The position numbers and the translations under genes were made by a program. DNA of 57,580 nucleotides, the filler included, from Squatina squatina (taxonomy: Eukaryota): NCBI GenBank assembly GCA_031763465.1. It is 3 parts of 3 records of this genome, joined end to end, with 100 filler letters (N's around TTAATTAATTAA, not from the genome) between each part and the next. Parts side by side here need not be neighbours in the genome. Positions count along the whole stretch, not along the records: positions 40,456 to 57,580 come from JARFOE010000230.1; 2 more parts are not named here. The stretch is one strand, 5' to 3'. The notes under the pieces are model-generated. The model saw only the letters and a list, made by a program, of their open reading frames with translations. It had not been told where the DNA came from and searched no databases. Positions 28,485 to 57,580 of this stretch are shown here, in pieces; within the stretch, counting starts at the first letter, position 1, and each line of letters opens with the position of its first letter.

Positions 28485-28740
28485 TGGCCCTAAATTTGCG
28501 ATTGGAAGCTTCCTGTGTGTGGATGCCTCTGATCGCAAAAATCTCTACCAATTTACCTGACAGTCCGGGATCCACATAAACTTCCTGTCTTCTGCCCCCA
28601 CAGTTGGGCATGTGCTCTGTCATGTCTAAGTCAGACTGGAGAGGTCACATGGGAGGTCCCAACCAATCAGATAGGAGTATCTCTCATTCAAGCTTTGACG
28701 GATATGACAGATCTGTCAAAGCTTGAATGCGAGATACAAA
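28485..28740 (+). repeat. Interspersed repeat with CCAAT box and long internal hairpin (copy 1)
   Basis: Homologous to the reverse complement of 50485-50735 (cacatgggaggtcccaaccaatcagatagg vs cacgtgggaggccccaaccaatcaggtagg); begins with TIR-like ggccctaaatttgcg. Confidence 0.7.
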
Positions 28741-31700: not shown

Positions 31701-32439
31701 AATGAAATATGTGGTGCGGAGCAACTCAGAGTTCGTAAATCTCACAGCATAATGTATTCTGTTGGTTTATTTTGACTGGAGAATGATTACTGGCGAGTCA
31801 GATTTGAAATTCGATGTAGTCACACAGAAGGGTTTTGTGTCAGTGAAGCCCATGTGGCCCAACGATCTGTTAACTGCCTCAAGATTAACCCGCTCCCCCT
31901 TTGACCCTTGTGTTTTTTAAATAAAAGGCCTACAGGTGTTTATCTGCGGTCGGTCTGGGTATTGTGCATCTGGAAAAGAAATGGTTTCCTGAAGACTTTC
32001 TGCACTGTAGTCAGACCTTGTGGTCAGTGGCAGGTTAAAGTTCATTTTGTCTGGCAGTAAAGGACACAGACAATTGAAGACCATATCTGGATATTTAAAC
32101 TGCTGCCACAAATCCCTATTAGACAACACAAAGTTAAACAAGAAAACTTGGATTCACTTTGAACTGACTTCTGCTCCTTTAAGGGAGGTCTGTAGCCCAT
32201 CTGTACGTCAAATCTTAATGCCTTCACGGAAGAGTTGAATCGACTGCAACACAGGCATCTGGTCAATGTAGCTTTAAAGTGGTTGAGGAAAAAAAAATAC
32301 CTTCAGTGAAGGTGAATACGTTTGAAAAAAAAATTGTAATATTGGTGGATATAGCCAACAAAATGCATTTTACAAGCATTATACATATTTTGACAGAAAA
32401 CAATTTAATACTTATAGACTGCTCCCTGGAGGACTCAGT

Positions 32440-32546
32440 GGGGCCAATTTTACCCCTTCTCATTGGGCGGGACTCGACAGCAGTTGGTCAGCCGCCCGTT
32501 TTATACTCTGACACACTTTCCTTTCATTTCCATTAAAATTGACCCC
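32440..32546. mobile_element. Miniature MITE (~107 bp)
   Basis: TIRs ggggccaatttta / taaaattgacccc; TSD AGT. Confidence 0.65.
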
Positions 32547-35500
32547 AGTGAGTTGCTGAGCCACACTGATCAGCAAGGTTTAGCTTTGATTCCCCTGTGT
32601 GTGTTGAGTACGCTGACCTCAGCCAGAGTGGCAGTAGAGGTGTTACAATTAGCCTCGGCATCTCTGGGTAAGGCAGGGGAAATCAGCCAAGAGCTCAAGT
32701 TATCCCGCCAGCCCTGCTGGAAATCAGGTGAGGACAGACCTGGCTGAATAGCCTGCTGACACTCACTATCACACAAATAATGGCCACTTCTGCGAGATAC
32801 CACAGGGTATCTGCTGCCTACAGAACCATACTCCAGCAAAGAGTCTAAATCTTCAGATGAGAGTGGAGAAAAAGAATAAAAATAAACCAGGAGGTGAGTC
32901 TCAGCTCCAAAACATAATGGAAAAATATGCTTACTTACAGCACAGTGCTTTACGAGCTTAAGCTATTTATTATTGTTTAGATTTGCTAATATGTCAGGGG
33001 CAACAAAGCAACTCTGTCTGCAAATAAGTGTGTTTCACATCAAAAAGCTGCTGAGAGATGGTTGCTGCTCGATGTCAGTAGTAAATAAACCATTAATCAT
33101 GCTGTTACTCTGGGGGAAAGGGCCATCTATCCCACAGGACATGAACTTTTCACAGGTCACTAACATAAAACGCATCCACACCACCGTTGTGCACAACTTA
33201 AGGCCACTGAATGGAAATGTGTTAAAAAACATATGAAACAGAGTAAGTTGAAACTCAAAAAGAAGTAAACACTGCCATTTCTCAGGAATGTGAAAAGGTC
33301 TCTGGCACTCAGTGTTAATTATTTTTTGTCTATTCTTGGTTTCAGCTCAGCTTGCATTAGAGGTTCGCACCACTTCTGACTGCCCTCTCTGAACAAATTT
33401 CTTACTGTAATGTTTTGTGCTCCAGGTCCCTCTTTTTATCTCTGACCACCTTTTCAACATGTTTGCACATCGTTCTTACATTTATCAGTGAATCCCATAA
33501 TCCTTCAAGCTGCAGGAATTGTAGGAATTTTTCTTCCTCCCCTTACTTTGCTTCTGATTAATTTATCAATCAACTTAAGGTCATACTTGACCAGCGTACG
33601 CTTACTTCTTTTAGGATACGTATTTATCCTGCATTATGCTTTTACCCTTCACTGAAGTGCTGTTAAAGCAACCCCCATCAACAATAAATTCGCTTAAGCA
33701 CATCTTCGAAGTTAGCTGTTTCGAAATTCTATACTGCCTTCTGGTCCTTGTGTTTCTGAATCCCGGATCTTGTCAAACTTGATTATTCTGTGGTTCACCA
33801 TCATGAATAGAGACACGTGCTTATCAGACAGCGATCAGGAGCAGGGACCCTGACATGCTTTCAGCGAACAAAGAGCCTACTGTAGAGCTTCTACTCTTGC
33901 TCTGGCTGGGATGGGTGTTTCACAAGGTTACGGTACAGACTCAGNNNNNNNNNNNNNNNNNNNNNNNNNNNNNNNNNNNNNNNNNNNNNNNNNNNNNNNN
34001 NNNNNNNNNNNNNNNNNNNNNNNNNNNNNNNNNNNNNNNNNNNNTCCTCGAGTTTCTTTGAGTAACCGTGGGAGCAATCCATCAAGATTTACTTTGTTTA
34101 AATTTAAAAGATTTAAAGAAAACTTCTTCTACTAAATTGCCTGCTCAACGTCTGGGCAAAGTGGGAGGGGATGGAGGCAAGAAAATCGGCTTTATTTAGT
34201 TAATAGTTCTATAGAAAATAATTGGAGCTGAGGTTTGTTTTATATTTGTGAAATGCAACCTTGTTCCCATCTGGATATTCAGTGAATGGATGCAATGTCC
34301 TTATTAATGAGCATTTCATGAAGATCTATCCTCCTTAAGTCCTTGAATGGCAATCAGCTCTCAAAATAGCAACCACACATTGTAAGCACAAATTACTTTA
34401 ACATTTCATTCTTTTTTGGGGTACAATGTTCCAGTGTGCTCTGAAAAATGAGAAATAGAACTTCACAGTCTTCAGCTTCCAAACTGCTCTGCCTCAGAGT
34501 CGAATCCATCACAGCTTATGGATGGCAACCTATTGGTTTGCACGAGTTACACATTGTAATTGATATTCATTTAACCCGCAGTGTTTAATTTTACTCACCA
34601 AGGGGAGCCCTGATAATCTTTGTTATTTGACTGCTGTAGGCATCAATGTGCTGCATGCACACAGTTGACCATAGGGGTCCTTTCAAACAGCTGCAACTCG
34701 CTGAGTGAAGTGAGAGACCACCAAGTGTCATTATAGCAGTTAACTTGGTTCATGGTCATAGCTGGGGGGTGGAGGAAGAGTGCTTTTATCCTGGTCATGT
34801 TTGGAGAGGGACGGTAGTAAATGTAGAAAAATTTGAAGCTTGTTTTGACAACATGACCTTAAGCCTTTTTATGTTGTATGGGTCAAGTAAAAAAAAAACA
34901 CTTGTCTTTGTACTGCCATCGCGATGTAACACATTTACATGATGTGGGAAAGCTGACTTCCACGGATAGCTTACAAGAGCCGGCTTGCCAGTGTTTAGAA
35001 GTGGTGATGTTACAGGCACATTGAAAGAACAGTAGAGAAATCAGGCTGCTGCCTGGGAGCCAGTTTTCATTGTGTCTCCGGAGATTTCATTCGGTACTGG
35101 CCAAGACACATTCATTATAATTGGTTCATGAAAATAATAACCATTCATTTCGTGTACATTGCTTTAATGAAAGCAATCTGATTGTCAATTCCAGTTTAAT
35201 TCCAAAAATAGCAATTCGACCAACATATGATCTCTGTGTGNNNNNNNNNNNNNNNNNNNNNNNNNNNNNNNNNNNNNNNNNNNNNNNNNNNNNNNNNNNN
35301 NNNNNNNNNNNNNNNNNNNNNNNNNNNNNNNNNNNNNNNNTTAAGCTAATATGACAAAATGACAGATGGTTTCTCTGGTTTATCCCCTTCAGAAAGCTTT
35401 TCAAACGCTTGTTTATGAAAACAGTGTTGGATTAAAATAAATGAATTACGCACAAATAATAGATTCTTAGGAAAGGTACTGGACTCAGGGAATTGTACCC

Positions 35501-36797
35501 AGAGGAGTCAACACATCCAAGAGAATGGGGGATGGGGATGGAGGAGGAGGAGACAGAGGAAAATTGGTGAGGAGGAAAAAATTAAAATTTGTGAGACTGA
35601 AATTTCTCATGCAGATAAATTTGGGAAAAAAGTCAGTGTGAGTATAAAGTGAGGGTTTGTACTCGCAGTGACATTTTCACTAAAATGATTTTTCAATGCA
35701 TTCTCTCCTTTAAATAGGACACAGAAGAGACACATTGAAATCCAAGTTTCAGTTCTTTATTCTGGCTCTGTGAAACAACATGACTGGAGAATTGTATGTG
35801 GCCGTAAGGCCCTTGGAAAGCGATAAAATGTAATTTTAAAAAGTGAGTTTCTGCATCATTGATAGGAAACTGATGATATGTTGAAAAATTGAGAAATGGG
35901 TTTAAACATTTCAATCCTTGCTGATAACTCAGCCTCTGTGAAGATAACACTGTTGGAGATTTTTCACACTGGCTCTCAGATGTGACCAGTTTGAAAGCGG
36001 TGCTTATCAGTTGAGTGATACTTGCAACACGCTGGGCTCTGTTTGCCAGATGGGGCCTGCAGTGTGTGACCCAGGTCCCTGCTTTCCATCACTATTGACA
36101 CTTTGTATCAATGATGGTCTCCTGCCTCATGAAATTCTTGTTGCTTTGGTGGGAATTACCTAGAGTGCAGCTGAGAACATGTTTACACCTTTGTCAGAAT
36201 GAGGTTCCTAAGACACCAGCTGAAAACTACAAACTAACAAAGCTATTACTAAAGATAAGATAGAATGTTGACCTGTGGCAACCCAAGGTTGTGGATTGAT
36301 CACAAGGAATGAACAGGCTTCTGCTAATGTAAGCCGGAGATGCTTGAGCTCTACTCTGTCAATTTGCTGTTCATTTCTGAGTGAAAACTGTGGCCTAGAA
36401 ATTTGTGTTTGCCATGAAAGTTGGTGTCACCAGTAACTGGAGTTAACGGCCACAACGCGAAGGAGAATAAATTTGTCTAGAGGGCTGGAGATTGGTGCCG
36501 CAGCACGAACCTTTCGTGCAACGCCCTCCTGCTGGCACTAGTGGAGACCTCCGAGATGAAGTTCCCATCCTGAAGCGTTTGAGCTTCGCTCAGCCTCTGG
36601 GAGCGAGGCTGTGGAGCTCACAAGGAATTGTGGGCTATTAAAAGGGCTATGAATGAAAGGGGCAATGCACTCAGAAGTAATGCAAATTAAAATGCGTGAA
36701 AAAATACAGTTTTCAGCCCTTATTGCATTTTAAAAAAAACTTTAAAAAAAACCAAATGTGATGATTCAGCTCGTCTGAACCTAAAAAATGGGAAAAT

Positions 36798-40812: not shown

Positions 40813-41016
40813 CTGAGAGTGCAGTAGCTGTACCCTCTCAGTGACATCAGTAAGCTCTTGTTCAGCGATTTTGCGAGCTCTATCTGTCTGTTCTAATGCC
40901 GCTCTCATTTCTTCAATCTCAGCCTGCTGCAGGCCACTTCTGCGCTCAACCATGGCCAATTGCTCCTTCAAGTCGTCCTGGCTTCTGCAAGCATCATCCA
41001 GCTGTAACTGGGTATC
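40813..41016 (-). CDS. MYH: MYH copy B exon 35 (rest of gene cut off at linker gap)
   Basis: [68 protein letters not shown]; 204 nt. Confidence 0.95.
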
Positions 41017-41266
41017 CTATTTAAACACAGAAACATTTATTGGAATGTAAGATTTTATTGGAAACTTAACATTTACATTTTATGTTAGTACGGATACATT
41101 TTCAGTGTTATACAGTGAATAATAAGTTTGCTTTTAACTTTTAATCAAGATGCTTAACAGTTTAAAAATTCTAAAGGTACTGACAAGGAATAATTTATTA
41201 ACTTACATTAATAATGCTTTAAATGTGATTACATGAAAAACAAACACAATGCACTATTATACACAC

Positions 41267-41575
41267 CTTGAATTGTCCCTGCAAGTTTCTGAGATGTTTC
41301 TGAGCTTCTGAAGCCTGACGATTAGCATGGCCCAACTGAATCTCCATTTCATTCAGATCTCCTTCCATTTTCTTCTTGATTCTTAAAGCATCATTTCTGC
41401 TCCTGACTTCAGAATCTAAGGCAGTTTGCATTGTTTCTACAACCCTCTGTTGGTTCCTCTTCAGCTGATCAATTTCTTCATCTTTCTCTGCAATTTTCCT
41501 GTCAACTTCAGATTTTACTTGGTTCAGTTCTAGCTGAACACGGAGGATCTTGCCCTCTTCATGTTCCAGAGAAGC
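41267..41575 (-). CDS. MYH: MYH copy B exon 34
   Basis: [64 protein letters not shown]...QGQFK; 309 nt. Confidence 0.95.
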
Positions 41576-42229
41576 CTGCAAAAGGAGATCACACAAAATT
41601 GTCAACATGTCACACATTTGTAGTTATAAGAAGTGCTTGAAGTACCTATGATAGTGTGTACTAACTACATGCATCTTTGTAGGTTAACTTTTAATTATGT
41701 AATTGAAAAGAAATAATGCAGCAACTGTTATATTATTTGATGAGCAATTATTTAAATAATTTAATGTCAAGAGCTCTTACATTTTGAGCACCAGATTTTG
41801 AAATATGGTGTTAATAATTGTGGCTTTGGCTTAGGACCTATGCAGGGATGTCACCATTGTGAGCGACCAGAGATTCCTTCAAAGGTTCCTATCTAATGAC
41901 TTTTCCCACTTTAGCAATGCATCATAACATTAACTTTCTAATGAGAATAAAGTAGAAAAGAGTTGCAACATCTGAGTTTTAAAGGTTTAGTATTGTGCAC
42001 TGCAGAAAGTGTGATTCATTACTTGGATTANNNNNNNNNNNNNNNNNNNNNNNNNNNNNNNNNNNNNNNNNNNNNNNNNNNNNNNNNNNNNNNNNNNNNN
42101 NNNNNNNNNNNNNNNNNNNNNNNNNNNNNNGGTACAAGGTAAGTTGGTGTGAGTAAGGATGTGCAGGAGTAGGGTAGGGAAGACAGAGTAATGGGGGATG
42201 TGATGAGTGGCACAGCAGGGCGAGGTTGA

Positions 42230-42365
42230 ACAAAAGCAAAATACTGTGGATGCTGGAATCTAGAATATAAACAAAAAAAAATGCTGGAAGACTCAGCAGG
42301 TCAGGCAGCATCTGTGGGGAGAGAAACAGAGTTAACGTTTGGGTCAATGACACTTTGTCAGAACA
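42230..42365 (+). mobile_element. Interspersed repeat, probably Penelope-like terminus
   Basis: aaatgctggaagactcagcaggtcaggcagcatctgtggggagagaaacagagttaacgttt; copies at 1197-1272 (reverse), 1545-1690, 3725-3830, 22940-22975, 53470-53568; family assignment from recall. Confidence 0.55.
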
Positions 42366-42838
42366 TTCTGTCAGTGTTTGCAGCTTCTGAATGCTGACAG
42401 GACAACTGCCAAAGAAAGTTGATCATGGTCTCTTTAAGAAAAGCAGCTGATGACGCATTATCAGACTGGCTTCCCGTTAATTGGAGGGGAAGCCCGCATG
42501 GCGAGCTTAACAAGAACAATCAAGGGAAGATTGCTGGACAGGGCAGGCTGGAGTTGGGAGCACGATCTGGGCACGTATGTGGCCCGCAACCAACCCGCCT
42601 CCCGTTGCAAAATCGTTGCCGAGGATTCACATTCAGACCAGGACATTAATCATACAGATGAATATTGGGGATTTAGACAATCTTTACGATTTATTATGAT
42701 TCTATGAATAATATAGTTCCAAAATGTTATAGCATTTAACATTTGTTGAATTAAAATACTATTTAGAATTGAAGTATTATTTAGAATATAAATTTGTGAG
42801 TAAATACTGCAGTGAAGTGAGACATATCAAACGGTTAC

Positions 42839-42977
42839 CTTCTGTGCCTTCGGGCTCAGCCTGCTCCTCACGCTGTTTTTGCTTGAATTTCATGTTGCCA
42901 CAGTGCATTACTGCGCCAGTGAGTTTGTAGATGCCCCATTTCTCATCAATGACGAAGCCCAGGATATCAATAGCGGT
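42839..42977 (-). CDS. MYH: MYH copy B exon 12
   Basis: [46 protein letters not shown]; 139 nt; ag/gtaacc. Confidence 0.95.
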
Positions 42978-43307
42978 CTTTAAACCCAAACGATAAAGTC
43001 AGAATCCAACAGAAACGCTAATACTGAAACCGCATTATCGACTTAGTTGTGCAAAAGTTTTTAAAATTTACTGTAAAACGGCTTTATGCCGGGTCTTGTA
43101 ACCCAACATTTTTTAAAATGTCTCTTTTTAAACCAACTGGATAGATCCACTTTTTTGATCATTCTTTTTTCCATATCAGGTCAGTTCTAGACATATGCAT
43201 TTTTGTACCAAAATGTATAATTGGTAATGTTTGGTCATATATGCACATTCCTTATGAAGCACAAGTGGTGATAAAGAATAAAAGTTACAGATACAGCTGA
43301 TACTTAC

Positions 43308-43411
43308 ATCAGTTGCTACCAGTTCTTCCGTATCGTCAATACTCTTGACAGTGATCTCACCCTGACTGATGAATGGATAATCATAGGGATTGGTGGTAAT
43401 GAGGCAAGATT
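43308..43411 (-). CDS. MYH: MYH copy B exon 11
   Basis: (E)[34 protein letters not shown]; 104 nt; acceptor falls in gap 43412-43511; donor gtaagt. Confidence 0.93.
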
Positions 43412-44164
43412 NNNNNNNNNNNNNNNNNNNNNNNNNNNNNNNNNNNNNNNNNNNNNNNNNNNNNNNNNNNNNNNNNNNNNNNNNNNNNNNNNNNNNNNNN
43501 NNNNNNNNNNNCTGCACCTATTTTCTATGTTTCTATGTCTATGTTTCCATCAACACCTACCATTGTCTGCACATATAATACACAGCACACGGTCCAGGCC
43601 AGTGCTTCTGCTGTGGAACTACTGGAGCCTCTGGCTAGCCGAAGAGGGTTGAGGGGTAGAGTGACCAGGTTTTAAATATTCAAAACCGAAACTATTGTGT
43701 ACCGCTTAATTTAATGGTGCCGCAAACGAGACAAACGGTTCGAAAATCCCATGTTATATTTTTTAATGTAATGTTCATTTGCCTGGCATGTTTATAATAC
43801 TAATGTGATTTAAACACCGTTCAATGGAATGTAAATAATATAAGGTACATTACGTTTCAGTTACACTAAATACTTCTGGAATAAACGTTTTGCAGTAGTA
43901 GTAAATGATGATCGCCCCGCCACTGTTGCAGTGTGTGGTATTTCTATGTCATTGAACTGCTATATGATTCTGTTTATCGATGCTGAACCAGCCGCTTGCA
44001 GTGCGGATAATAACCAGTGGGGAGTCATTAAAGTCTAATTAACGTGTAATTGAACTTGACGTCCTGTGAATGAAAGATAACCAGCACTTACGGTCAAAAC
44101 AATGATATTAAACTTTTCTATTTAAGAAATGTAGTTTACATTTGGTTGTCTTAACATCCGTTAC

Positions 44165-44205
44165 CTTTATCAGTCCCAGGTAAGAGAAAATGCTCCACAG
44201 CAATT
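44165..44205 (-). other. Likely non-coding 5'UTR exon 2 of MYH copy B (41 nt)
   Basis: ttttcttttgctag acceptor, AAG|gtaacg donor; vertebrate sarcomeric MYH genes have two short non-coding exons before the ATG exon. Confidence 0.6.
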
Positions 44206-44425
44206 CTAGCAAAAGAAAAGACATAATAGTTAAATTAATTTTACTTCTTTGGATCTGTTTTAAATGTATCAGTTACATTTATGTCTTTTATCCCTTATTT
44301 ATATTGAGATAATTTTCTGGATTGATTTCTTATACCATTTAATATTTTACATAACTTGATGAGGTCCTCTCTCCCTCTGCTTCACTGAGAAAAAATATAA
44401 TTAAGAAAGTTAGTGAGAAACTTAC

Positions 44426-44925
44426 CCTGATGGTTGGACACCAGCAGCTTTCTGTGTTCTCTGGACAACTTATATATGAGCTCTTTTTTGTGGGCACAGC
44501 AGGTCCAGTTTCTATATTTAGTATACAAAAGCCTGATGATTGCATTAACTGGTATTCTAATATCAGGATATAATTAGAGAAGCAACGTCAGTTATTTGGT
44601 TTGGAATTCTTCAGCATTAATCCAGCCATCATCATGTCTATCCATATAAGTTGAACACGTAAAGCTGACACATGACAAGTCCAGTTTATAAAATATCCAT
44701 CCACTGAACCTCTAAAATAGGCTTGTGTTTAACTGGTGGTGCTTTCTTGGTAAGCACACGCTGCATTTATAATTTAGAAATCCGCTTGCCAAAAAATACT
44801 TTGCTGTATATAAGTCCACTCATTTCTTTGTTGCTAATATAGATTTTGGAAGTATGGTCACAACACCTCAATACATAACATTTAGCTGGGGTTTATTTTT
44901 AAATTAAAATGCAAAATTGCTGAGA
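44426..44925 (-). promoter_or_regulatory. Likely promoter and non-coding exon 1 of MYH copy B
   Basis: Minus-strand TATATAA (44470-44476); MEF2 consensus CTAAATATAG (44512-44521); CTAATTATATCC resembling the AT-rich element of vertebrate fast MyHC promoters (from memory); strong donor AGG|GTAAGT at 44425; upstream of and co-oriented with copy B exons. Confidence 0.7.
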
Positions 44926-45892
44926 TGCATATTTTTTCTAAAATATCATACAGTTGAAAATTACATCTTTCTTACAAGCCCTTGCACATATTGTCCCAGA
45001 AACTGCTGGAAAAATAATGGCATATTAACAGCACTCACCAATATTAGTTCATACAAAATCCAGCAATTTTGAGGCAAGGGAAATATAGGTCATGAGTTCC
45101 GGTTCTTCACAAATTGTTGGATGCTTTTAACCATTAGTCTCAACAAAAACCAATAAAACCTCGCTGTGAGCCTCCCATTGAAATGAATTGCTTGTGGGGA
45201 TTCCAGAACTAAGGGCTATAACTATAAAATAGTTACTAACAAATCCAGTTGGCCTGTTTCTGTGTTGTAAATTCTATGTAATTTTATGTAATTGGGTGTC
45301 ATGAAATTGCTGGGCTTATGCCGTTAATATAAATTTATCTTGCAGCAGCCATTAATGCTGGTTATTCATGTTGTAAGGATGCTGTTAATGATGTAATCTA
45401 TGGTCCTGACATGACACTCAACATTGGCGGCCCAGAAAGGGAGCAATGAAGCTATGGAGTCTCACTCCAGCAGATAGTGAAGTGTTCCTAGAGGTTTTTC
45501 AAACTCTTGTTAGAGTTGGAAGGCAAACATTTTCGGATACAAAACTATTTTGGCACTCTGAAAAGCAAATTAGATATATTTCTTTCAGAAAATAATTTTG
45601 AGGTACAGTTAATGAATAATTTGAGACATGAAGTGGTAAGTATAATATGCCTGGACTTATCTCTGGGTCTATTATAAACTGACTGATAGAGATTGAATGC
45701 TATGATTAGTCAATAACTCCATTATCGTTGTATCATGTGACTACCATGATGGTATAAGGCAAACTAGATGGTCTTTGTTTTTTTTCATCTAGCAAGGCCT
45801 ATGTTCCTATGGAAGCAGTGCAATGGGCGTTTGCACTGGATGTTCCACTGCTCCTGATCATGATTGATGGTGCCACTAGTCCTATACTGCAC

Positions 45893-46200
45893 ACCAGTGC
45901 AGTGCTGAGGGAGTGCTGCACTGTCGGAAGTGCTGTCTTTCAGATGCGACGTTAAACCGAGGCTCCATCTGCTCTCTCAGGTGAATGTGTAAGATCCCAT
46001 GGCACGATTTTGAAGAAGAGCAGGGGAGTTATTCCCGATGTCCTGGCCAATAATTATTCCTTAATCAACAGAACAAAAACAGATTATCTGGTCATTATCA
46101 CACTGCTGTTTGTGGGATCTTGCTGTGCACAAATTGGCTGCCACGTTTCCCAAATTACAACAGTGACTACACTCCAAAAGTACTTCATTGGCTATAAAAC
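45893..46200 (+). mobile_element. Deu-domain SINE
   Basis: gtgctgagggagtgctgcactgtcgg...gctgtttgtgggatcttgctgtgcacaaattggctgccacgtttcc...aaagtacttcattggct; fragments also at 16548-16619, 17445-17533, 22262-22361. Confidence 0.75.
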
Positions 46201-46306
46201 TCAGACNNNNNNNNNNNNNNNNNNNNNNNNNNNNNNNNNNNNNNNNNNNNNNNNNNNNNNNNNNNNNNNNNNNNNNNNNNNNNNNNNNNNNNNNNNNNNN
46301 NNNNNN

Positions 46307-46515
46307 AGCAATGCATCTGCTATTTCTAGGGCCACTTCCTTAAGTACCCTGGGATGTAGATTATCAGGCCCTGGGGATTTATCAGCCTTCAATCCCGTCA
46401 ATTTCCCCAACACCATTTCCCTACAAATACTGATTTCATTCAGTTCCTCCCATGATCTTGTTAAAAGGCGGAGCAGGTTCGAGGGGCCAAATGGCCTACT
46501 CCTGCTCCTATTTCT
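46307..46515 (-). mobile_element. CR1 ORF2 fragment
   Basis: VLGKLTGLKADKSPGPDNLHPRVLKEVALEIADAL (KSPGPD motif upstream of RT). Confidence 0.85.
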
Positions 46516-46899
46516 AAATAAATTAACTCACAGAAACAGCATTGACTAGTTATGGATACTGTATTTCATATGTATCCACTAATTTTTGAACGGAGATAAG
46601 ACGATGCGATAACAATGTGTTTGCAAAATAATGTTTCATATTAATTGATCTCCAGAACCTTCCATTCATGTATTTTCATGAGACAATTAAATTTGCCAAT
46701 ATAAACTCAATGTCAAAGGAAAGTTCCATTTCCCAACACACTGCTTTGCCATTTAATTGGCACTTGCATACAATTTTCTAACAATTCGGTAAAACAAGAT
46801 GCAAAAATCGTTGGATGTCACAACCGACAAGATTTGCCGGAGCGCAATAAACACGATGCTTTCTGCATTTAGTCTATGCGAAATTTCAGGCGGCGGGGA

Positions 46900-47407
46900 A
46901 ACATTTTTGAATTTTCATTAAAACCATAAACCCCAGGTAAATACCAGGTATTGATGTAAATCAGTGCAAAAGGCCGTGACTTCGCTTTCAAATCTAGCCG
47001 GATTACTAAACTCCTGTAATATAAGGTATTTTAGGGGACGAGAATTGACTGAATTTTATTTGTGTTTTTTGCTGACCAAGCGTCACGAGCCGAAATTAGA
47101 GATTCAATCCGTTAAAGATTTTGCACTTGGTACAAATTGCCACGTTAGCTGTACGTGGTCAGTTGTGGAGACATTTGATGAGGACTGGATTAATGGTTCA
47201 AGAATTCCACACAAAACTACTGACATTGCTTCTCTAATTTTATCCTGATGTGAGAACACGAGAGTTAGTGCAATAAGCAAATCTGCTCGTCAGTCTTTTG
47301 AAATACCAAATGGGGACTGGACCTGCTGCGCAGGCAAAAATTCAGTGTATATAGGTTGACCCACAGACCATCAAACGCTTCTCGCGTCCAACCATCAAGT
47401 CTCTTCG
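46900..47407 (+). promoter_or_regulatory. Inverted paralogous MYH-type promoter and exon 1 (plus strand)
   Basis: Collinear homology to the reverse complement of 44426-44925: ctggattaatg, aagaattcca, ttgcttctctaatt, actggacctgctg, TATATA (47348-47353), gtccaaccatca; candidate donor CG|GTATTG at 47408. Confidence 0.7.
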
Positions 47408-47700
47408 GTATTGACTTTCTTCACGGTAATTAGGGAATTAATGATATTTTGGTAACACTGAATGATATTTGTGGTATTGTGGGTTAGTCCTTTAGACATC
47501 TCATCGTCTTTAACATGTTGAAACGTTATTGTTTTTTTATTTGTAATTCTATGCTGGAATGTAACAAAGCAATTTGTTTTCAGACTGTTTCGCATAAAAT
47601 GAAATGATTTTGTATACCGTAGTACAACATTTCTAAAGAGCGCCTTCCATTTTCAGTCGTGACATACGGATGATTCACTTATCTTTTTCTTTTGTTACAG

Positions 47701-47740
47701 TTGCTGGACACATCTTTTTCAATAAGCAGAATCAATCAAG
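47701..47740 (+). other. 40-nt non-coding exon homologous to MYH 5'UTR exon 2, plus strand
   Basis: atctttttcttttgttacag acceptor, AAG|gtaagg donor; downstream intron homologous to the one after 44165. Confidence 0.6.
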
Positions 47741-48906
47741 GTAAGGGATGCTAATGCAGCCGAATCTAAACTACATTGCTTAAAGAGAAAACAAACTTTA
47801 ATAGATCATCTTAACATTAAATCTGATCGAAAAAGCTGATTATTTAACATAAGACAGAAAGCTGGACTGCATGTTAATTAGTCATTATTGACTCACTGGT
47901 TGTCATCCAAGACCTGACGACAAGCAGCTGGTTCAGAAACGATGTACGTAAAGTATCAGATATCAATTTCAGTGACATCTGCTCCGGGGCACATTGTTAT
48001 GTATCCAACTGTACACAATACTCGGCGTTTTCCACAGTTACATTAATCCAGAAATTGAAATGTTATGGGCGCGTGAGTCACTTGCTAATCTGAAGTCTTA
48101 ACATTAAATCAGTATTTAAAATATGCAAGACAGGAAGCCAATAGATAAATAAGTCGTGTTCACGTGGTATTCCAACGTTTTTGTTTCACTTGCAACATTA
48201 TTAAAGCAAAATATCATTCAATACACAATTATATGGATTTTCCAAATTTNNNNNNNNNNNNNNNNNNNNNNNNNNNNNNNNNNNNNNNNNNNNNNNNNNN
48301 NNNNNNNNNNNNNNNNNNNNNNNNNNNNNNNNNNNNNNNNNNNNNNNNNCAGCCTGACAACAAAAGTTTTTTTTATACAAAATGATTTCAAAAGCCTTCC
48401 TGTGGAGCCCAGAGGGGCAGGCTTGCCCCTCCAACTCAACAGTTTTCATGATCGTTCCACTGTTGCCTTCTCCAACCCCGTTCCTGAGAATGATTTTTGG
48501 ACCACTGCTGGCAAGGTCAGCGACCCAACAATCAGCATCCTCAAATCTGCGAGCTGCCTGTGGAGGCAACACAGGTGTCTGCAGCTCACACAGAAAAACA
48601 TTAATAAGGCCTTAGGCCCACTTTAAGGCCGTCCTCGGGCCTCCCAGTTTGGGCGCTCATTGCCTGCAGGACCAGACGAATTTACACCCCAAAATTTCAA
48701 TGATAAAATAAAGTTACAGCAGATTCTTGATTAACAAGATTTCACATGCACCATTCTAATAGTTTCTCATTTTATATCCACACTAAACTATTGTTCGCAA
48801 TATAACTTTGTTGGAGTTTTTCTATGCATTACTTTTGTTCCTAGCATGATTATTGAATCATTTAGCAAACATAAGATGACGAAGAAACATTTTTCAGAAT
48901 TGCACT

Positions 48907-49000: not shown

Positions 49001-49015
49001 CTACTCCTCGGCGGC
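49001..49015 (-). CDS. MYH: MYH terminal coding exon 41 (AAEE-stop)
   Basis: attag|GCC GCC GAG GAG TAG; short acidic tail ending in EE as in fast MYHs. Confidence 0.88.
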   Translation of the reverse strand, partial: AAEE

Positions 49016-49184
49016 CTAATAGGTAAAAAGGAAATGCAAATGAATAAATAATGAAAAGATTGCTTTTAAAATATTATTTATGTTTTGATTAACAATGGAA
49101 ATCTTTACTAATAATTTTCATTATTGTCAGTGTTTCTTGAGCTGTATTTTTATTCAGTTTTAAAATCAGTTGCATATACTGTAC

Positions 49185-49319
49185 CTTGACATTTATGTCA
49201 CGGGTTTTAGTTCTAAGTTTGTTGACTTGGGACTCTGCAATGTCAGCGCGTTCCTCAGCTTCCTCTAGTTCATGCTGCACCTTCCTGAACTTGGACAGAT
49301 GAATATTGGCCTGCTCCTC
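49185..49319 (-). CDS. MYH: MYH exon 40
   Basis: [45 protein letters not shown]; 135 nt; ag/gtacag. Confidence 0.96.
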
Positions 49320-50252
49320 CTGAAGAGAATACAGTACAAGAAATGATCAGGTTGCAGGAAAGCACATTGACCGTAGGAGAATGCAAACTGTCACTCGGAT
49401 AGTAAAAGTGCAAGTTATTAATTCACAAAGTTTTTGACAAAAGTCATTATCTGTTTAGGGGGTGACTATCAGACTGTGATCCACACATTTTGAGGTTCGT
49501 AGAGCAACCACTCACAAGATACATCAGCTTTTTATTCTTTGTGGGAGAAGACTGGATTGTGGACTAGTTTAGCATCTTTTGCACCTGGGGCCTGAGTTTG
49601 AATCCAGCCTAGATTGGATGAAAGTTTCTGTTCACTGATAGGACTTTGGGTGTTGCAGTGGTTTCTGAAAATGGGCTACACTGCACACATTTTACACCTG
49701 TAAAACAGGTGCAATGTGGTCTAATTTCTGCCCCAAAATGTCTACAGTTGGAATGGGAGACAACACATACTAGTTAATGAAATGAGGGGGGAAATAGGCG
49801 AGACTTCATAAATATCTTCATTGGAAATGTGCTTGAGGTCATCGCACAGGATGCTACCAGTGCTGTCCTGAAGAACAACAGGCCAGACCCCACTAGTTGC
49901 TAGAATTCTTTGAAAATGTAGTGGATAGCCTAGCCAGGGGATATATTTAATTTTGATTTTCAGAAGGGATTTCAGGAATGAAGTGTGAGCTTTTTAAAAC
50001 AGCCAATTCCTGTGGATAGTAACAAATTCACTAGGTAGACTTAAAATTTCCTTGGCAATAGAAAGTGGAAGATGAAAATAAATGGCAGAGCTCTCTCACT
50101 TATGATTGGAGTTCTGAATGCCTTATTCTAGGGTCCCTTCTGGTCACAATAGTCTTAAATAATGATAATGAGCTTTGTAATCAGATGACAAATGTAAGGA
50201 AGATTAAAAGCATTCACAAAGATCTAGACCAATTATTTTTTCAGTTACTTAC

Positions 50253-50308
50253 AGCCTCCTCAGATTGTCTTTTGTAGGCCTTAACCTTCATCTGCAGCTT
50301 GTCCACTA
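50253..50308 (-). CDS. MYH: Second, partial copy of MYH exon 39 (5' part lost in gap)
   Basis: [18 protein letters not shown] then gtaagt; abuts gap 50309-50408; differs from the 51252 copy (EEA vs EET). Confidence 0.85.
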
Positions 50309-50484
50309 NNNNNNNNNNNNNNNNNNNNNNNNNNNNNNNNNNNNNNNNNNNNNNNNNNNNNNNNNNNNNNNNNNNNNNNNNNNNNNNNNNNNNNNNNNNN
50401 NNNNNNNNATTATATATAATTTTATTAAATTTTAACATTTCAGTAGTTTTTAAAACGTATTTTTAAGTGCTTGTGCTGTTTTAC

Positions 50485-50735
50485 TATCTCCCATTCATAC
50501 TTCTGCTGATCTTCATATATGACAGAGATCAGCAGAAGCCTGAATGGGAGATATTCCTACCTGATTGGTTGGGGCCTCCCACGTGATCTCACCAGTGCCT
50601 GCGCTGCACATACACTGGAGAGATCTGTGGGCCGCTGCAACTGCTGACCTGATGAGGAAGAAGAAATCAAATTTTTGCAGCTCCTGGACCATCAGGTAGG
50701 TTTGTAGAAACATTTACAGTCGGAGGCATAAAATG
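50485..50735 (-). repeat. Same hairpin-bearing repeat (copy 2), in MYH intron
   Basis: Homologous to 28485-28740; 28-bp stem at 50485-50553. Confidence 0.7.
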
Positions 50736-51242
50736 GTGAAGAATTTCAATGTGAATAATAATTCACTGAAATCTTCTGCTCAATTTAATGTGAAGAACTA
50801 AGACAATTCCACTATATGTCTCAAAGCACTTGGGTGTAATGAAGTTACTGTAATCTTATATAGATGGTGACCCCCAAACTCAATCTTATGCGCAATTTTT
50901 GGGCACCTTATTTCCAGAAAATATTGATGCATTTGAGAGTTTAGTTAAGAGCAAAAATAATGATTCTGTACTTAGTTCTGAGATTTGAACCTAAGTTATG
51001 AGTAGAAGTTTACAAAGCTGAATACGTCTTGTTGAACACGATAGGATACATAGATCAGTAAAAGGAGATGACCTGATAAATATATGAACTTCTATGCTTT
51101 CTGTGTAAACAATTTGATGATATTGCTGACTTTCTGTCAGTGTAGGTTGCATGAGCATTTGACGTTCTTTAATTTAAAGTTTAGTTTTCTAAAATAATTT
51201 TCTTTAAATATTTTTAAAGAATAAATTCAACTATTGTCTTCA

Positions 51243-51374
<132 letters not shown>

Positions 51375-51458
51375 TTAATTTGATTATAAAAAATGATTAT
51401 TACTGGTTCCCACAATGGTGTGCCACTCCAAATAATGAGCTTATAAACTGTACAATAC

Positions 51459-51563
51459 CTGATAGGACAGCTCCTTGACTCTTCTTTCATATTTGCGAAC
51501 ACCTTTGATGGCATCAGCACCTCGTTTCTGCTCAGTTTCCAGTTCATTTTCCAGTTCACGCAC
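51459..51563 (-). CDS. MYH: MYH copy A exon 38
   Basis: [35 protein letters not shown]; 105 nt. Confidence 0.96.
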
Positions 51564-51667
51564 CTAAGCCAGTCACCAATTAGTATTTGTTTTTACATCC
51601 ATTGCAAGTTTCATATTACCTTTTAAATTATGATCCTTTTTTTGATGCTATATTTTCACAAGCTTCA

Positions 51668-51901
<234 letters not shown>

Positions 51902-52007
51902 TCATTATTCAAACTCAAGCTCCTAATAATACCAACAAAGTACTTGAAGCGAGACAGTCAGTAATTGTAAAAATATGAATAAATAGTTAAGATAACTTCT
52001 GACTTAC

Positions 52008-52133
52008 ATCTGTGATAGCCTTCTTTGCTTTTTCTTCAGCATTTCTTGATTCCTGAATTTTTTCTTCCATTTCAGACTGGAGATGATTCAGGTCAGAATC
52101 CAGCTTCTTCTTCGTGTTGATGAGACTAGTGTT
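52008..52133 (-). CDS. MYH: MYH copy A exon 36
   Basis: [42 protein letters not shown]; 126 nt; ag/gtaagt. Confidence 0.96.
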
Positions 52134-52549
52134 CTGCGGAATCAATTTGTAAGAGCTTTGTTTTGTAGGATGTGTAAATTGTAAAAAAGACTATAGCATT
52201 GATATTAACCCCCATGATGGATAATTGGGAGCCCAATTTAGCATTTACTATTGCTGCTCGGGTTTCCCAGAGGACAGAAACTCAGCAGTGAAAAGAAGGC
52301 AGGAGCTGCAGCTTCCTGTCACTGGTGTTTCCACCTGCCAGCCGGCCATGCTATCCATTTGGTTCGCTGCCAGGTGGGAAACGGAACTAAAAATGTTAAT
52401 AAGGTTCTGCACTTTAAGTTCGGCAGAACCACCTCATCTTGATCTTTGCCGAATCTTTTGGCCATTTTACATCTCAACCACACCTTCTCTGTATTTAACA
52501 GGACTGGCATGTCTACTTGGTCCATATTGACATTACTGTGCGGACAAAC

Positions 52550-52753
52550 CTGAGTGTGCAGCAGCTGTACCCTCTCAGTGACATCAATAAGCTCTTGTTC
52601 AGCGATTTTGCGAGCTCTATCTGTCTGTTCTAGTGCTGCTCTCATTTCTTCAATCTCAGCCTGCTGTAGGCCACTTCTGCGCTCAACCATGGCCAATTGC
52701 TCCTTCAAGTCTTCCTGGCTTCTGCAAGCATCATCCAGCTGTAACTGGGTTTC
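52550..52753 (-). CDS. MYH: MYH copy A exon 35
   Basis: [68 protein letters not shown]; 204 nt. Confidence 0.96.
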
Positions 52754-53037
52754 CTATTTAGAGTGTAGAAATATTTTGTGAGCAGATATCATAGTAAACT
52801 GTAATATTCATATATTAGCATAAATTAGAATAATAAACCTTTTAGTGAAATCTTAAGTAGTTTGAATAATCTAAAACTGTTGACAAATGATAATTCCTGC
52901 ACTTTTCTATTAAGTTAGGTCATAGGAAAACGCCATTACATTTACTTAATTGACTGATGAATCACAATATTGAGAGCTAGATTAAAACTAACTGTCAGTC
53001 AGAAATCAATCAGAAATAAATGCACTATTGTACAGAC

Positions 53038-53346
53038 CTTTAATTGACCCTGCAGGTTTCTGAGATGTTTCTGAGCTTCTGAAGCCTGACGGTTAGCATG
53101 TCCCAACTGAATCTCCATTTCATTTAGATCGCCCTCCATTTTCTTTTTGATTCTTAAAGCATCATTTCTGCTCCTGATTTCGGAGTCCAAGGCACTTTGC
53201 ATTGTCTCTACAACTCTCTGGTGGTTCCTCTTCAGCTGTTCAATCTCCTCATCTTTCTCAGCAATTTTCCTGTCAACTTCAGATTTTACTTGGTTCAGTT
53301 CTAGCTGAATACGGAGGATCTTGCTTTCTTCATGTTCCAGAGAGGC
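53038..53346 (-). CDS. MYH: MYH copy A exon 34 (coiled-coil rod)
   Basis: [81 protein letters not shown]...QGQLK; 309 nt; ag/gt. Confidence 0.96.
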
Positions 53347-53469
53347 CTAGAGAGGGCATCACACATATTTTTGAACATTTCACACATTATAGTCATAAAA
53401 GTTGCTTTCACTCTCTATGATACTAGTGCACATTAAATTCATCTATCTTTCCAGACTATTATAGCATGA

Positions 53470-53815
53470 AAGAAGCGAAATACTGCTGATACTGGAATCT
53501 AGAATACAAACAAAAAATGCTGGAAAACCTCAGCAGGTCAGGCAGCATCTGTGGAGAGAAAAACAGAGNNNNNNNNNNNNNNNNNNNNNNNNNNNNNNNN
53601 NNNNNNNNNNNNNNNNNNNNNNNNNNNNNNNNNNNNNNNNNNNNNNNNNNNNNNNNNNNNNNNNNNNNTGAAAGCACCTCCCAAACCCATGACCTCTACC
53701 ACCTAGAAGGACAAGGGCAGCAGGCGCATGGGAACACTACCACTTCCAAGTTCCCCTCCAAGTCACACACCATCCTGACTTGGAAATGTATCATTGTTTC
53801 TTCATCGACACTGGG
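53470..53815 (+). mobile_element. Repeat fragments on both sides of the gap between MYH exons 11 and 34
   Basis: Penelope-like piece 53470-53568; LINE 3'-like piece 53670-53815. Confidence 0.6.
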
Positions 53816-53918
53816 ACAAAACTGTATTATTGGTTATGGCTGCCTAAACCTGCGCATGCCTTAAAATGCACAAGTAAAGATAAGAAAATAAAAATAAAGA
53901 TGTACAGCTGATACTCAC

Positions 53919-54022
53919 ATCAGTCGCCATCAATTCATCCCTATCATCAATACTAGTGACAGTGATCTCACCCTGGCTGACGAAGTGAAAATCATAGGGA
54001 TTGGTCGTAATGAGACAAGATT
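53919..54022 (-). CDS. MYH: MYH copy A exon 11
   Basis: (E)[34 protein letters not shown]; 104 nt; ag/gtgagt. Confidence 0.96.
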
Positions 54023-54367
54023 CTGTGGAAAACAAAATAAGTGTTTTGTAGAAAGACTTGTAATTTACCAACTGAAAGGAAGCATAAGTATCACCCAATT
54101 TTACAATTAGGTTTTCCCTCTTCCATTTGGCCAACTTGTTAAATTCAGTTTCAATTCAACATTGGTCTGGTAGTTGCTATACTGAGATATCACTGAAAGC
54201 ATTATAGACAGGAGATACATTCATAACATGAAAATCAGCTAAAGTTGAAAGAAAAGTATGGAAATGACAAAATATTAAATTATAATAGGTGACATTAGGA
54301 ATTTATTTCTACAGATCTATTAAAAGACTGAGATAAAGCTATATTGCAAACATTAATGTATCATAAT

Positions 54368-54868
54368 GGCCTGGATTTTGTGGTGGTAATGACGGTGAAA
54401 CTGTCAGCACACCAGAGATTCTGCCAGCAAGTGGGGACCGGCCGCCATACATTGACTGACAATAAATTCAGCCGATGGAAAAGCATGGCGGCCGGTGGCG
54501 CTATCAACATGCCTTTAAGTGGCCTTGGCAATGACGTGGGCCTCGCCATTGAGCTGTGCTCCAGTTCCGAACATGGCTCACCGGTGATGCAGATGGGGGT
54601 CGCGGGCCAGCAATTGTGGGGTCGGCGTGCGACTTGATGACATTGCACGCGTTACCCTGCTAGCAATGGCATCCCCGGCAATGAGGCCTTAGCTTTCTTG
54701 CTTTGGGGCCCGGGTACTGCCACTGCTCGGCGCTACCATGGGTCTAAAGGAGCCCAATTGGGCCCCCCTAAAGTTCCCGCCACAGAGATCGCAAGACCTT
54801 TGTGGGCAGCATTCTTCGGGGCCAGCGGCGATCGTCGTTGCTTCTCCACTGACCGCAAATTTGGGACC
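54368..54868. mobile_element. GC-rich MITE, PIF/Harbinger-like, in MYH intron 10
   Basis: Imperfect TIRs ggcctggattttgtgg / ccgcaaatttgggacc; 3-bp TSD AAT on both sides. Confidence 0.65.
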
Positions 54869-54938
54869 AATTATTGTTCCTGTGTGAGCAGACAACAAAA
54901 AGATGAAGGTAGCAACATTATAAAACTTCCGTCCTTAC

Positions 54939-55037
54939 CAACAATTTCTGGTTTATGGTTGGTCATCATCTGGTAGAAAATGTGGTAACTCCTTTCAGCT
55001 TTTAGCTGGAACGTTACTCTGGATTTTTCCAGTAGAT
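54939..55037 (-). CDS. MYH: MYH copy A exon 10
   Basis: (Y)[32 protein letters not shown]; 99 nt; ag/gtaagg. Confidence 0.96.
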
Positions 55038-55132
55038 CTGGAGAGATATGTGCACATACAAATGTAGATTTACTGAAGAACCAGTCTACCTATCAACCAG
55101 TTGTTTTATGGTCTTATTGCAAATCAAGTTCA

Positions 55133-55222
<90 letters not shown>

Positions 55223-55379
55223 TTAATCAAGTCAGAGATTTGAAACACGAATTCACAAAACGCGCACAATATAATTGTGTTATTGAAACATCCTGATTGT
55301 TACACTGCATTGATAATCAATATCGTGCACACTATGGGGTTCAATAGATGCAACTGTAGGGAATGTGCAAGAAACTTAC

Positions 55380-55472
55380 GAAGCGAGATGAGTTGTCATT
55401 TCTCACTGTCTTGGCATTTCCAAAGGCTTCCAGCAACGGGTTAGCCTGGATGATTTGATCCTCCAGGGACCC
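55380..55472 (-). CDS. MYH: MYH copy A exon 8 (switch I)
   Basis: [31 protein letters not shown]; 93 nt; ag/gtaagt. Confidence 0.97.
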
Positions 55473-55583
55473 CTGCAGAAATATTTTTGATTACCACGAG
55501 TTGGAGCATTTAACAAGTGAAGAAACGAATTACAGCTAAACAACGAGAAGTTGCCACATTTTATTGTATTAGTTTTGTCTTAC

Positions 55584-55701
55584 CTGTATCTTCCCAGATT
55601 GTTGAGCCTCCTTCTTCTTGGCATCACTCGTGGCTGCAACTGATGCAAAATACTGGATGACACGTTTCGTGTTCACAGTCTTTCCAGCACCAGATTCTCC
55701 A
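55584..55701 (-). CDS. MYH: MYH copy A exon 7 (P-loop, loop 1)
   Basis: [39 protein letters not shown]; 118 nt; ag/gtaaga. Confidence 0.97.
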
Positions 55702-55839
55702 CTGGATGGGGTGGGAGCAGAAAATGAAGAAATCAACAATTACCGCCCTAAGGAAATATTTAAAAAGACTGGAGTCGATTAGATTTCTATCAGATAACTA
55801 CCAACATCTAGGGGAATAGATCAAACCAGCAACACTTAC

Positions 55840-55867
55840 GTGATCAAGATGGACTGGTTTTCACGAT
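55840..55867 (-). CDS. MYH: MYH copy A exon 6
   Basis: 28-nt exon (D)RENQSILI(T); ag/gtaagt; phases fit neighbours. Confidence 0.95.
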
Positions 55868-56017
55868 CTGTAAACAAGACGATCACAAGATCAACGCTCG
55901 GTTCAGACAACACGGAGAATGTTGTATTTTTTTGCCCGTGGTCCCGGATTCAACGAGAATCCAAAATAATTCAGCGCTGGACAGCAAAAAATCTATAATC
56001 AAAACCTACACACTTAC

Positions 56018-56174
56018 CGGTTGACATGGCCTGATAAGCATTGTCAGAGATGGAGAAGATGTGGGGAGGAGCCTCTTGACGCTTCTTGCCTCTGTAACCA
56101 GTCACGACCTCGGGATCGTACACTGGCAACCACTTGTAGGGGTTTACAGTGACACAGAACAACCCAGAGTAGGT
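56018..56174 (-). CDS. MYH: MYH copy A exon 5
   Basis: [52 protein letters not shown]; 157 nt; ag/gtaagt. Confidence 0.97.
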
Positions 56175-56229
56175 CTAAAGTCAGAGAAAGGAATTAGGAA
56201 CCTTTAATTTGTTCAATTATGTTTTTAAT

Positions 56230-56800
56230 TTTGTAATTGAAAGGGGTGTAGGAACAGATAGACCTGGGGGTTCATATTGGCAGATCTTTGAAGGTGGCAG
56301 GACAATTTGATATGGCTGTTACAATGCGTATGGGATCCTCCTCGCCTTTATAAATGGAGGTAGAGCATACAAAAGCAAAGAAGTTATGCTAAACCTGTGT
56401 AAATCACTGGTTAGGCGTCAGCTGGAATGTTGTGTCAAATTCTGGCCACTGGTTGTCGGACTTTGTAGAAGGTGCAGAGGAGATTTACTAGAATTTTACC
56501 AACTGGGATTGTTCTCCTTAGAGCAGATAATGTTAAGGCAAGATTCAATAGAAGTGTTCAAAGTTACAAAGGATGTTGATAGAGTAAATAAGGAAAAATT
56601 GTTTCCATCGGCAGAAGGGTTGATAACCAGAGATAGGTCATTTGCAAAAGAACCAAAGGGGAGATGAAGATTGTTTTAGGCACCAGGAGTTGTTAGGATG
56701 TGTATTGCATTGCCTGGAAGGGTGATGGAATCATATTCAGTTGCAACTTTAAAAATAGAATTATATGCTGGAATAGGAACATTTTGCGGGACTATGGGGA
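56230..56800 (+). mobile_element. Degraded CR1 3' region in MYH intron 4
   Basis: MLNLCKSLVRRQLECCVKFWP...LGLFSLEQ...IEVFKVTKDVDRVNKEKLFP. Confidence 0.8.
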
Positions 56801-56826
56801 AAATGCTCTGAAGCTATTGTACTTAC

Positions 56827-56970
56827 GTAGATCATCCAGGCTGCGTAACGCTCTTTGAGGTTATACAGCACAGTTGCTTCATTCAGGTGGGTCATCATGG
56901 CCATGTCCTCGATTTTATCGAATTTTGGAGGGTTCATAGGGAAGACCTGGTCCTCTTTAAGAGTTAGTGT
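56827..56970 (-). CDS. MYH: MYH copy A exon 4
   Basis: [48 protein letters not shown]; 144 nt; ag/gtaagt boundaries. Confidence 0.97.
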
Positions 56971-57063
56971 CTGCAAAATAATCAACAGATCTTTTTGGAT
57001 TCTTTTTTTAAAAAAAGTGACCACAGCTCTATTTTTCTAACATTAACTTTTTGAAGCACGTGC

Positions 57064-57267
57064 CTGTTTATCCAGGGTCTCAACGATCACTTTACCACCT
57101 TCCTTGCTCTTGATTTTGCCTTTTGTGAACTCATTCTTCGGATCGATGCAGTAGCACGCGGTTTTAGCCTCGAAGGGTCGGTTTTGGGCTTCAATTCGTT
57201 CTTTCTCCGTCTTTCGCAGGAACGGCGCCGCCACCCCAAAAATGGCCATTTCCGCATCCGAACTCAT
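57064..57267 (-). CDS. MYH: MYH copy A, first coding exon (exon 3), fast skeletal-type myosin heavy chain N-terminus
   Basis: [32 protein letters not shown]...; 204 coding nt as in vertebrate fast MYH; acceptor ttttcacag at 57280-57281; accATG context; donor is GC (CAG|GCACGT). Symbol is family-level only; exact orthologue not assignable. Confidence 0.95.
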
Positions 57268-57465
57268 GGTTGTAGTTTACTGTGAAAACAATTATACAGC
57301 ATCAATGACAGTGTTTGTAGTCTTCTTGAAAATTATTTTTAAAGAAGACTTTTAGCCCAATAACAATAAAATGTAAAATTTAACTCCCTTGTATATCCGC
57401 GTGTCCACCTTGCATCGCATCAGGATACAAAGGATAACAACTTTAATTCATGTTTTACTTTTCTT

Positions 57466-57580
57466 TCCTTCTTCTTAGGCAGTCCCTCGAGGTTGAGGAT
57501 GACTTGCTTCCACTCCGGAGTTGTGGCCTCTGAGGTGACTGAAAAGTCCAATCCGGGATCCACAAACTCTACCACAGGTG
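57466..57580 (-). mobile_element. RTE-clade LINE 3' end
   Basis: Reverse reads ggaagcaagtcatcctcaacctcgagggactgcctaagaagaag with a (GAA)n tail. Confidence 0.6.

Follow-up and report, generated by a model that had tools for sequence, protein, structure and literature searches.

Vertebrate sarcomeric MYH genes carry two 5'-untranslated exons before the ATG exon, and the fast skeletal MYH clusters of lamprey and tetrapods are head-to-tail, as described in the accessible part of PMC3869912. The accessible text of PMC3983002 places the six fast MYH genes of zebrafish in triplets on opposite strands, and that of PMC12776057 terms these triplets two inverted clusters; a fast MYH cluster spread over both strands is therefore not new, going by those passages. 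We found no paper on the layout of a shark fast MYH cluster in a literature search beyond which most subscription journals lay. The locus described here lies in a 57,580-nt stretch of Squatina squatina DNA (the window), which maps to C230 with an offset of 1,754,620 and around which 160 kb were examined. Like the lamprey and tetrapod cluster in the available portion of PMC3869912, the shark locus holds several fast MYH paralogues with two predicted 5'-untranslated exons; it departs from the head-to-tail order given there in that the scaffold carries the A genes on the strand opposite to B, C and D. The initial annotation had described an inverted duplicate of an entire MYH promoter and 5'UTR module forming a head-to-head pair. 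We found that the inverted homology between the two modules is real, and that the contig carrying the plus-strand module is probably displaced by a placement error (a probability of about 60%) instead of marking a new gene arrangement.

Self-BLAST of the window matched 43946-44919 to 46902-47978 in three inverted, collinear blocks with identities of 68-79% (Table 1). The inverted alignment had a local score of 148, as against 24.5 ± 2.9 (maximum 35) in 100 doublet shuffles and 22 for the same-strand control. The order ATAAACCCCAG, CTGGATTAATG, TTGCTTCTCTAATT, TATA, GTCCAACCATCA and exon-2 donor was conserved across both copies; homology ended at 44919/46902, and the interval between was largely repeats. 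These results bore out the annotated pair of collinear, diverged MYH promoter/5'UTR homologues, and the shared motifs named for it were all present in both copies in the same order. An exon 2 of 41 versus 40 nt with intact AG/GT was likewise counted from the sequence, and contig 46307-48249 indeed had a 100-N gap on each side. The annotation needed correction on two points: intron 1 aligned poorly and gave no BLAST block between the copies, and the exon-1 donor GTAAGT was absent from the plus copy, in which GTAATT was the nearest strong candidate. Both copies had the anatomy of an MYH 5' end, with a TATA and an exon 2 flanked by AG/GT, and the minus copy has a canonical exon-1 donor, for which the plus copy offers a candidate. 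The transcription starts of both modules, predicted from TATA spacing, were ~2.9 kb apart, and each copy had its own TATA with ~450 nt of upstream sequence homologous between the copies, a layout that does not correspond to a shared bidirectional promoter.

Table 1. Features of the fast MYH locus, in positions of the window
Feature	Position	Strand	Remark
Gene A1 coding exons	40813..43411	-	aa 304-381 and 1547-1718 of P0001; remainder missing at gaps
Promoter and 5'UTR module of A-class fast MYH gene A1	43850..44930	-	intron 2 82-83% identical to L003 and L022
Inverted block 1	43946-44170 vs 47978-47735		68%; self-BLAST
Inverted block 2	44428-44669 vs 47397-47144		70%; self-BLAST
Inverted block 3	44865-44919 vs 46957-46902		79%; self-BLAST
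Predicted non-coding exon 2, 41 nt, AG/GT	44165..44205	-	alignment and printed sequence
Predicted non-coding exon 1	44426..44446	-	start predicted from TATA spacing; donor GTAAGT at 44425
TATA box (TATATAAG)	44469..44476	-	
Old dispersed repeat immediately upstream of minus module	44990..45200		36/41 query matches fall here
High-copy repeat ending left contig	45880..46206		depth ~1-9 million; 9 non-self matches in 218 kb; presumably SINE-like
100-N placeholder gap carrying head-to-head join	46207..46306		
High-copy repeat opening plus-module contig	46307..46515		depth 1.7-8 million; 5 non-self matches; presumably LINE-like
Divergent promoter and 5'UTR module, likely of single-copy B-class fast MYH gene	46900..48070	+	link to B putative
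TATA box (TATATAGG)	47348..47355	+	
Predicted non-coding exon 1, start and donor uncertain	47378..47425	+	candidate donor GTAATT at 47426
Predicted non-coding exon 2, 40 nt, AG/GT	47701..47740	+	alignment and printed sequence
100-N placeholder gap	48250..48349		relatives continue beyond 48249, unlike 48350 onward
A-class coding exons, gene A2	49001..56970	-	stitched from three contigs; aa 339-1547 missing at gap 53569-53668
B-type ATG exon joined to A-type downstream exons	57064..57279	-	ATG at 57267; no promoter module detected upstream in scaffold

The minus module is, by its sequence relationships, the 5' end of an A-class gene. Its intron 2 matched two unplaced contigs, C918818 and C872573. 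The second of these (L022) was 85% identical to the minus module over 222 nt and then ran into an MYH ATG exon, confirming that the module is an MYH 5' end; this exon was A-type at 8 of 9 diagnostic sites, and the remaining site was of neither type. The window's own minus copy is broken by a gap before its ATG exon, the link to such an exon being shown via the paralogue L022.

The ATG exon in the window best matched shark fast MYH proteins, with up to 88% identity. A tree of 25 proteins had two classes, A, which is expanded within lineages, and B, which has a single gene in each species; the two were sister clades, with a support of 0.94 on the branch separating both from the outgroups. Three A-type copies of intron 2 were 82-84% alike while the plus copy was 54-61% identical to those three, a pattern that mirrors the expanded A clade and the one-gene-per-species B clade. 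A different paralogue as the owner of the plus copy than of the minus copy is supported. The plus module, as a divergent singleton, suits B, which is likewise single-copy and the sister of A; it is therefore likely the promoter of this B-class gene, and possibly that of C or D instead. Genome searches, whose counts are lower bounds, found no closer copy of the plus module in genome G000, and nhmmer detected no module copies near genes B, C and D in 160 kb. We found neither an overlap nor a linking sequence from the plus module to a coding exon. A 30-nt continuation past the module in a relative was absent from G000 at up to 3 mismatches, the best site in the 160 kb having 10. Joining the plus module to the ATG exon at 57267 was also considered and rejected, as the intron upstream of that exon was dissimilar and the contig ends did not overlap.

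Classification of exons and tblastn placed the cluster, from left to right, as D (3 contigs, +), C (9 contigs, +), the body of B (3 contigs, +) and A1 with A2 (6 coding contigs, -). The B body occupies the window-equivalent positions 29643-35503, outside the window's stretch, 11-17 kb left of the plus module and on the + strand. Strand was constant for each class (15/15 non-A coding contigs on + and 6/6 A coding contigs on -), placing the plus module on the strand shared by B, C and D, and all 21 coding contigs fitted the single linear order D-C-B-A1-A2. This collinearity leaves the plus module as the sole misfit, and scaffold order is not shown to be wrong elsewhere. We had considered the three leftmost + contigs as displaced pieces of gene C and rejected this; they were 76% identical to the C reference, compared with 89-93% for the others, indicating that they form a separate gene D. 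With D separate, misordering of the scaffold is unproven and the case for an artefact is weakened. Accession numbers in RefSeq, taken as a stand-in for gene order, were uninformative: among the seven species with at least two A accessions, the B accession lay outside all A numbers in four (Carcharodon, Hypanus, Mobula hypostoma and Heptranchias) and among them in three (Mustelus, Cetorhinus and Heterodontus). For a distant myosin at C230 ~1.88 Mb, none of 172 candidates passed the E-value of 1e-20 set for naming.

The join that brings the two modules head-to-head is without sequence support. The 160 kb around the window comprised 61 contigs (median 1,116, maximum 3,912 bases) with 37 gaps of exactly 100 N, which are unsized placeholders. 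At gap 46207-46306 the contig ends shared no end sequence, and none of the relatives' pieces listed bridged the gap, mapping being swamped by repeats. At the other end, three contigs of relatives' run X11 and one of run X6 extended past 48249, and the extension did not match 48350-48435. Elsewhere, gap 43412-43511 hides the coding exons before aa 304, gap 53569-53668 conceals aa 339-1547, and on either side of gap 50309-50408 lie two copies of one exon, not identical but 94% alike.

The assembly is fragmented and the head-to-head placement depends on one of its gaps, so the placement is likely to be erroneous. Displacement of the plus-module contig is further favoured by the lack of a detected promoter module for B, C or D, by the position of the plus module on their strand, by 100-N gaps that here conceal whole exon series and by high-copy repeats at both ends of gap 46207-46306. 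Against it, similarity-based placement beside an A promoter would have given the strand of the A module and not the opposite one. The initial annotation had offered a mis-oriented or misplaced contig as one explanation; misplacement is now the likeliest reading, with the position of contig 46307-48249 rather than its strand probably at fault. We infer both the assignment to B and the true position within this reading: the plus module would belong upstream of the + strand B coding contigs at C230 ~1,784,000, and the simplest repair would be to shift one contig ~17 kb to the left. In the repaired cluster D, C and B would occupy the + strand and the A genes the - strand, with B and A meeting tail-to-tail; each module would drive transcription of its own gene, beginning at a TATA and passing two short non-coding exons before the ATG exon. 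Neither a hidden third MYH gene nor an orphan promoter, both put forward earlier, is needed, since the + strand bodies of B, C and D lacked a detected promoter module and a B-type ATG exon lay at 57064-57267. We keep displacement at the probability given above, a true head-to-head pair as a minority view and an orphan as a small residue because the coding contigs are collinear and no sequence directly links the plus module to B.

A genuine head-to-head pair, in which A1 and a + strand gene diverge from separate TATA promoters with one gap of the placeholder kind added to the spacing given above, is unlikely, though it deserves to be kept in view. The + strand gene could then be B, its body misplaced, or the gene at 49001-57279 with a B-type head and an A-type body, this block having been flipped. 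The collinear, strand-consistent order of the remaining contigs indicates that the scaffold holds real order information; the sister clades A and B lie on opposite strands, as an inverted duplication would give; and in zebrafish, by the accessible text of PMC3983002, two fast MYH triplets occupy opposite strands. However, the arrangement requires three B or three A contigs to be misplaced instead of one, the gap is unbridged among the pieces listed, and homology between the copies gives way to mostly repeats before the join.

The B/A combination in the window was assessed by comparing classes in 76 of 83 cartilaginous-fish proteins. The ATG exon at 57267 had B-type residues at 9 of 10 diagnostic positions and A-type at 0, and was 88% identical to P0001, whereas exons 4, 8 and 10 of the same contig (53669-57580) were A-type and exon 11 was mixed. 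Full-length proteins with a B-type ATG exon (n=21) had a B-type tail exon in every case (21/21) and a B-type exon 10 in 20; exon 10 of Narcine P0012 scored 88 versus 85 towards A. The unplaced contig C352141 covers exons 5-9, has the B residue at the sole diagnostic site covered, and its first 77 nt are found unchanged within exon 5 of contig 53669-57580; 77 is a usual de Bruijn word length. Contig 53669-57580 fits a misjoin through gene-converted exons, and it may alternatively be a real, recombinant B/A hybrid gene. On both readings the window holds a B-type ATG exon for which no promoter module was detected. We regard as rather doubtful the wider idea of an ancient mixed-strand shark cluster, in which a single-copy B stands head-to-head with an expanded A across a few kb and the B promoter and ATG exon have perhaps recombined onto an A-type body to give a hybrid with swapped regulation.

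It is quite improbable that an inverted duplication left the plus module behind as an orphan promoter that serves no coding gene. The plus copy does lack the exon-1 donor and the minus copy's two canonical sites of what we take to be the MEF2-type motif pattern, and no coding exon is linked to it. But the plus module was conserved at ~87-92% identity in 5/5 DNA-type runs under four organism labels, its exon 2 retains AG/GT, and gene B needs a promoter while no other B-like module was found. Among the pieces listed from relatives' runs, those covering the modules were ~87-96% identical. Counterparts of both therefore exist in relatives, the plus module being covered under four organism labels and the minus module under three. 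The suggestion that the modules are two copies of a high-copy transposable element, or alike by chance, is barely credible and was ruled out: repeats adjoin both modules, and nothing further favours it, but the modules lacked a high-copy dispersed character, the four matches of the plus module in G000 (itself, two in the minus module and one on C918818) were all at MYH 5' ends, depth in four runs from other organisms was 4-84 over the plus module (46520-48211) and 3-311 over the minus against millions on the gap-side repeats, and the inverted-alignment score was far beyond the shuffles.

The most likely yield of this locus is two shark fast-myosin promoters with conserved upstream blocks, usable as muscle-regulation footprints, and neighbour relations read from this scaffold should not be trusted. 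Were the head-to-head pair or the B/A hybrid real, cartilaginous fish would provide a case of an inverted fast MYH cluster and of a natural promoter swap between myosin isoforms, of interest for how muscle genes evolve though no new kind of system. The exons of the window fall into the elasmobranch 'myosin-4-like' (class A, e.g. XP_041072631) and 'myosin-1B-like' (class B, e.g. XP_041072615) clades, and contig 53669-57580 differs from these in combining a B-type ATG exon with A-type exons. A comparable case is zebrafish chromosome 5, where the accessible portions of PMC3983002 and PMC12776057 describe opposite-strand fast MYH paralogues with distinct 5' regions in a narrow region; these portions state opposite strands for the triplets and leave head-to-head versus tail-to-tail unstated. 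The zebrafish copies resemble one another at 96-98% in mRNA; the shark classes A and B, in contrast, are old clades.

As ordered in this scaffold (C230 of the searched genome, G000), the fast MYH cluster is of mixed strands: genes D, C and B lie on the plus strand and the A genes on the minus strand, and the two sets stand tail-to-tail near 1,790,200. A myosin heavy chain that is more distantly related is represented by tail exons about 65 kb to the right of the cluster; these share 52-66% identity with the reference protein P0001.

Coordinates of features in the window and in scaffold C230
Feature	Sequence	Position	Strand
Genes D, C, B	C230	~1,749,100-1,790,100	+
A genes	C230	~1,790,200-1,812,200	-
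Distant myosin tail exons	C230	~1,877,650-1,884,200	-
Contig with ATG exon	window	53669-57580	-
Intron after ATG exon	window	56971-57063	-
Exon 5, copy 1	window	56014-56176
Exon 5, copy 2	C230	1758128-1758290
Exon 5, copy 3	C352141
Exon end and donor, copy 1	window	50230-50308
Gap in A2	window	50309-50408
Exon end and donor, copy 2	window	51228-51307
Palindromic element, copy 1	window	28635-28799
Palindromic element, copy 2	window	50420-50596

One exon end with its donor was present twice, on either side of a gap in the A-class gene A2, with 94% identity between the copies, which indicates that two paralogues or alleles were pieced together to give the 3' end of A2. A short element that contains an internal palindrome and may be a non-autonomous DNA transposon also occurred in two copies that were 72% alike.

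A single contig carried a B-type ATG exon together with A-type exons. The unplaced contig C352141, with exons 5-9, begins with an exact 77-nt overlap inside exon 5 of that contig, which is either chimeric or a real hybrid gene. The 93-nt intron directly 3' of the ATG exon begins with GC and was called by reading frame as the GC-AG type. Three MYH paralogues belonging to different classes shared 94-99% identity in exon 5, whereas their adjoining exons were 70-90% alike; this difference in sequence identity suggests gene conversion at exon 5.
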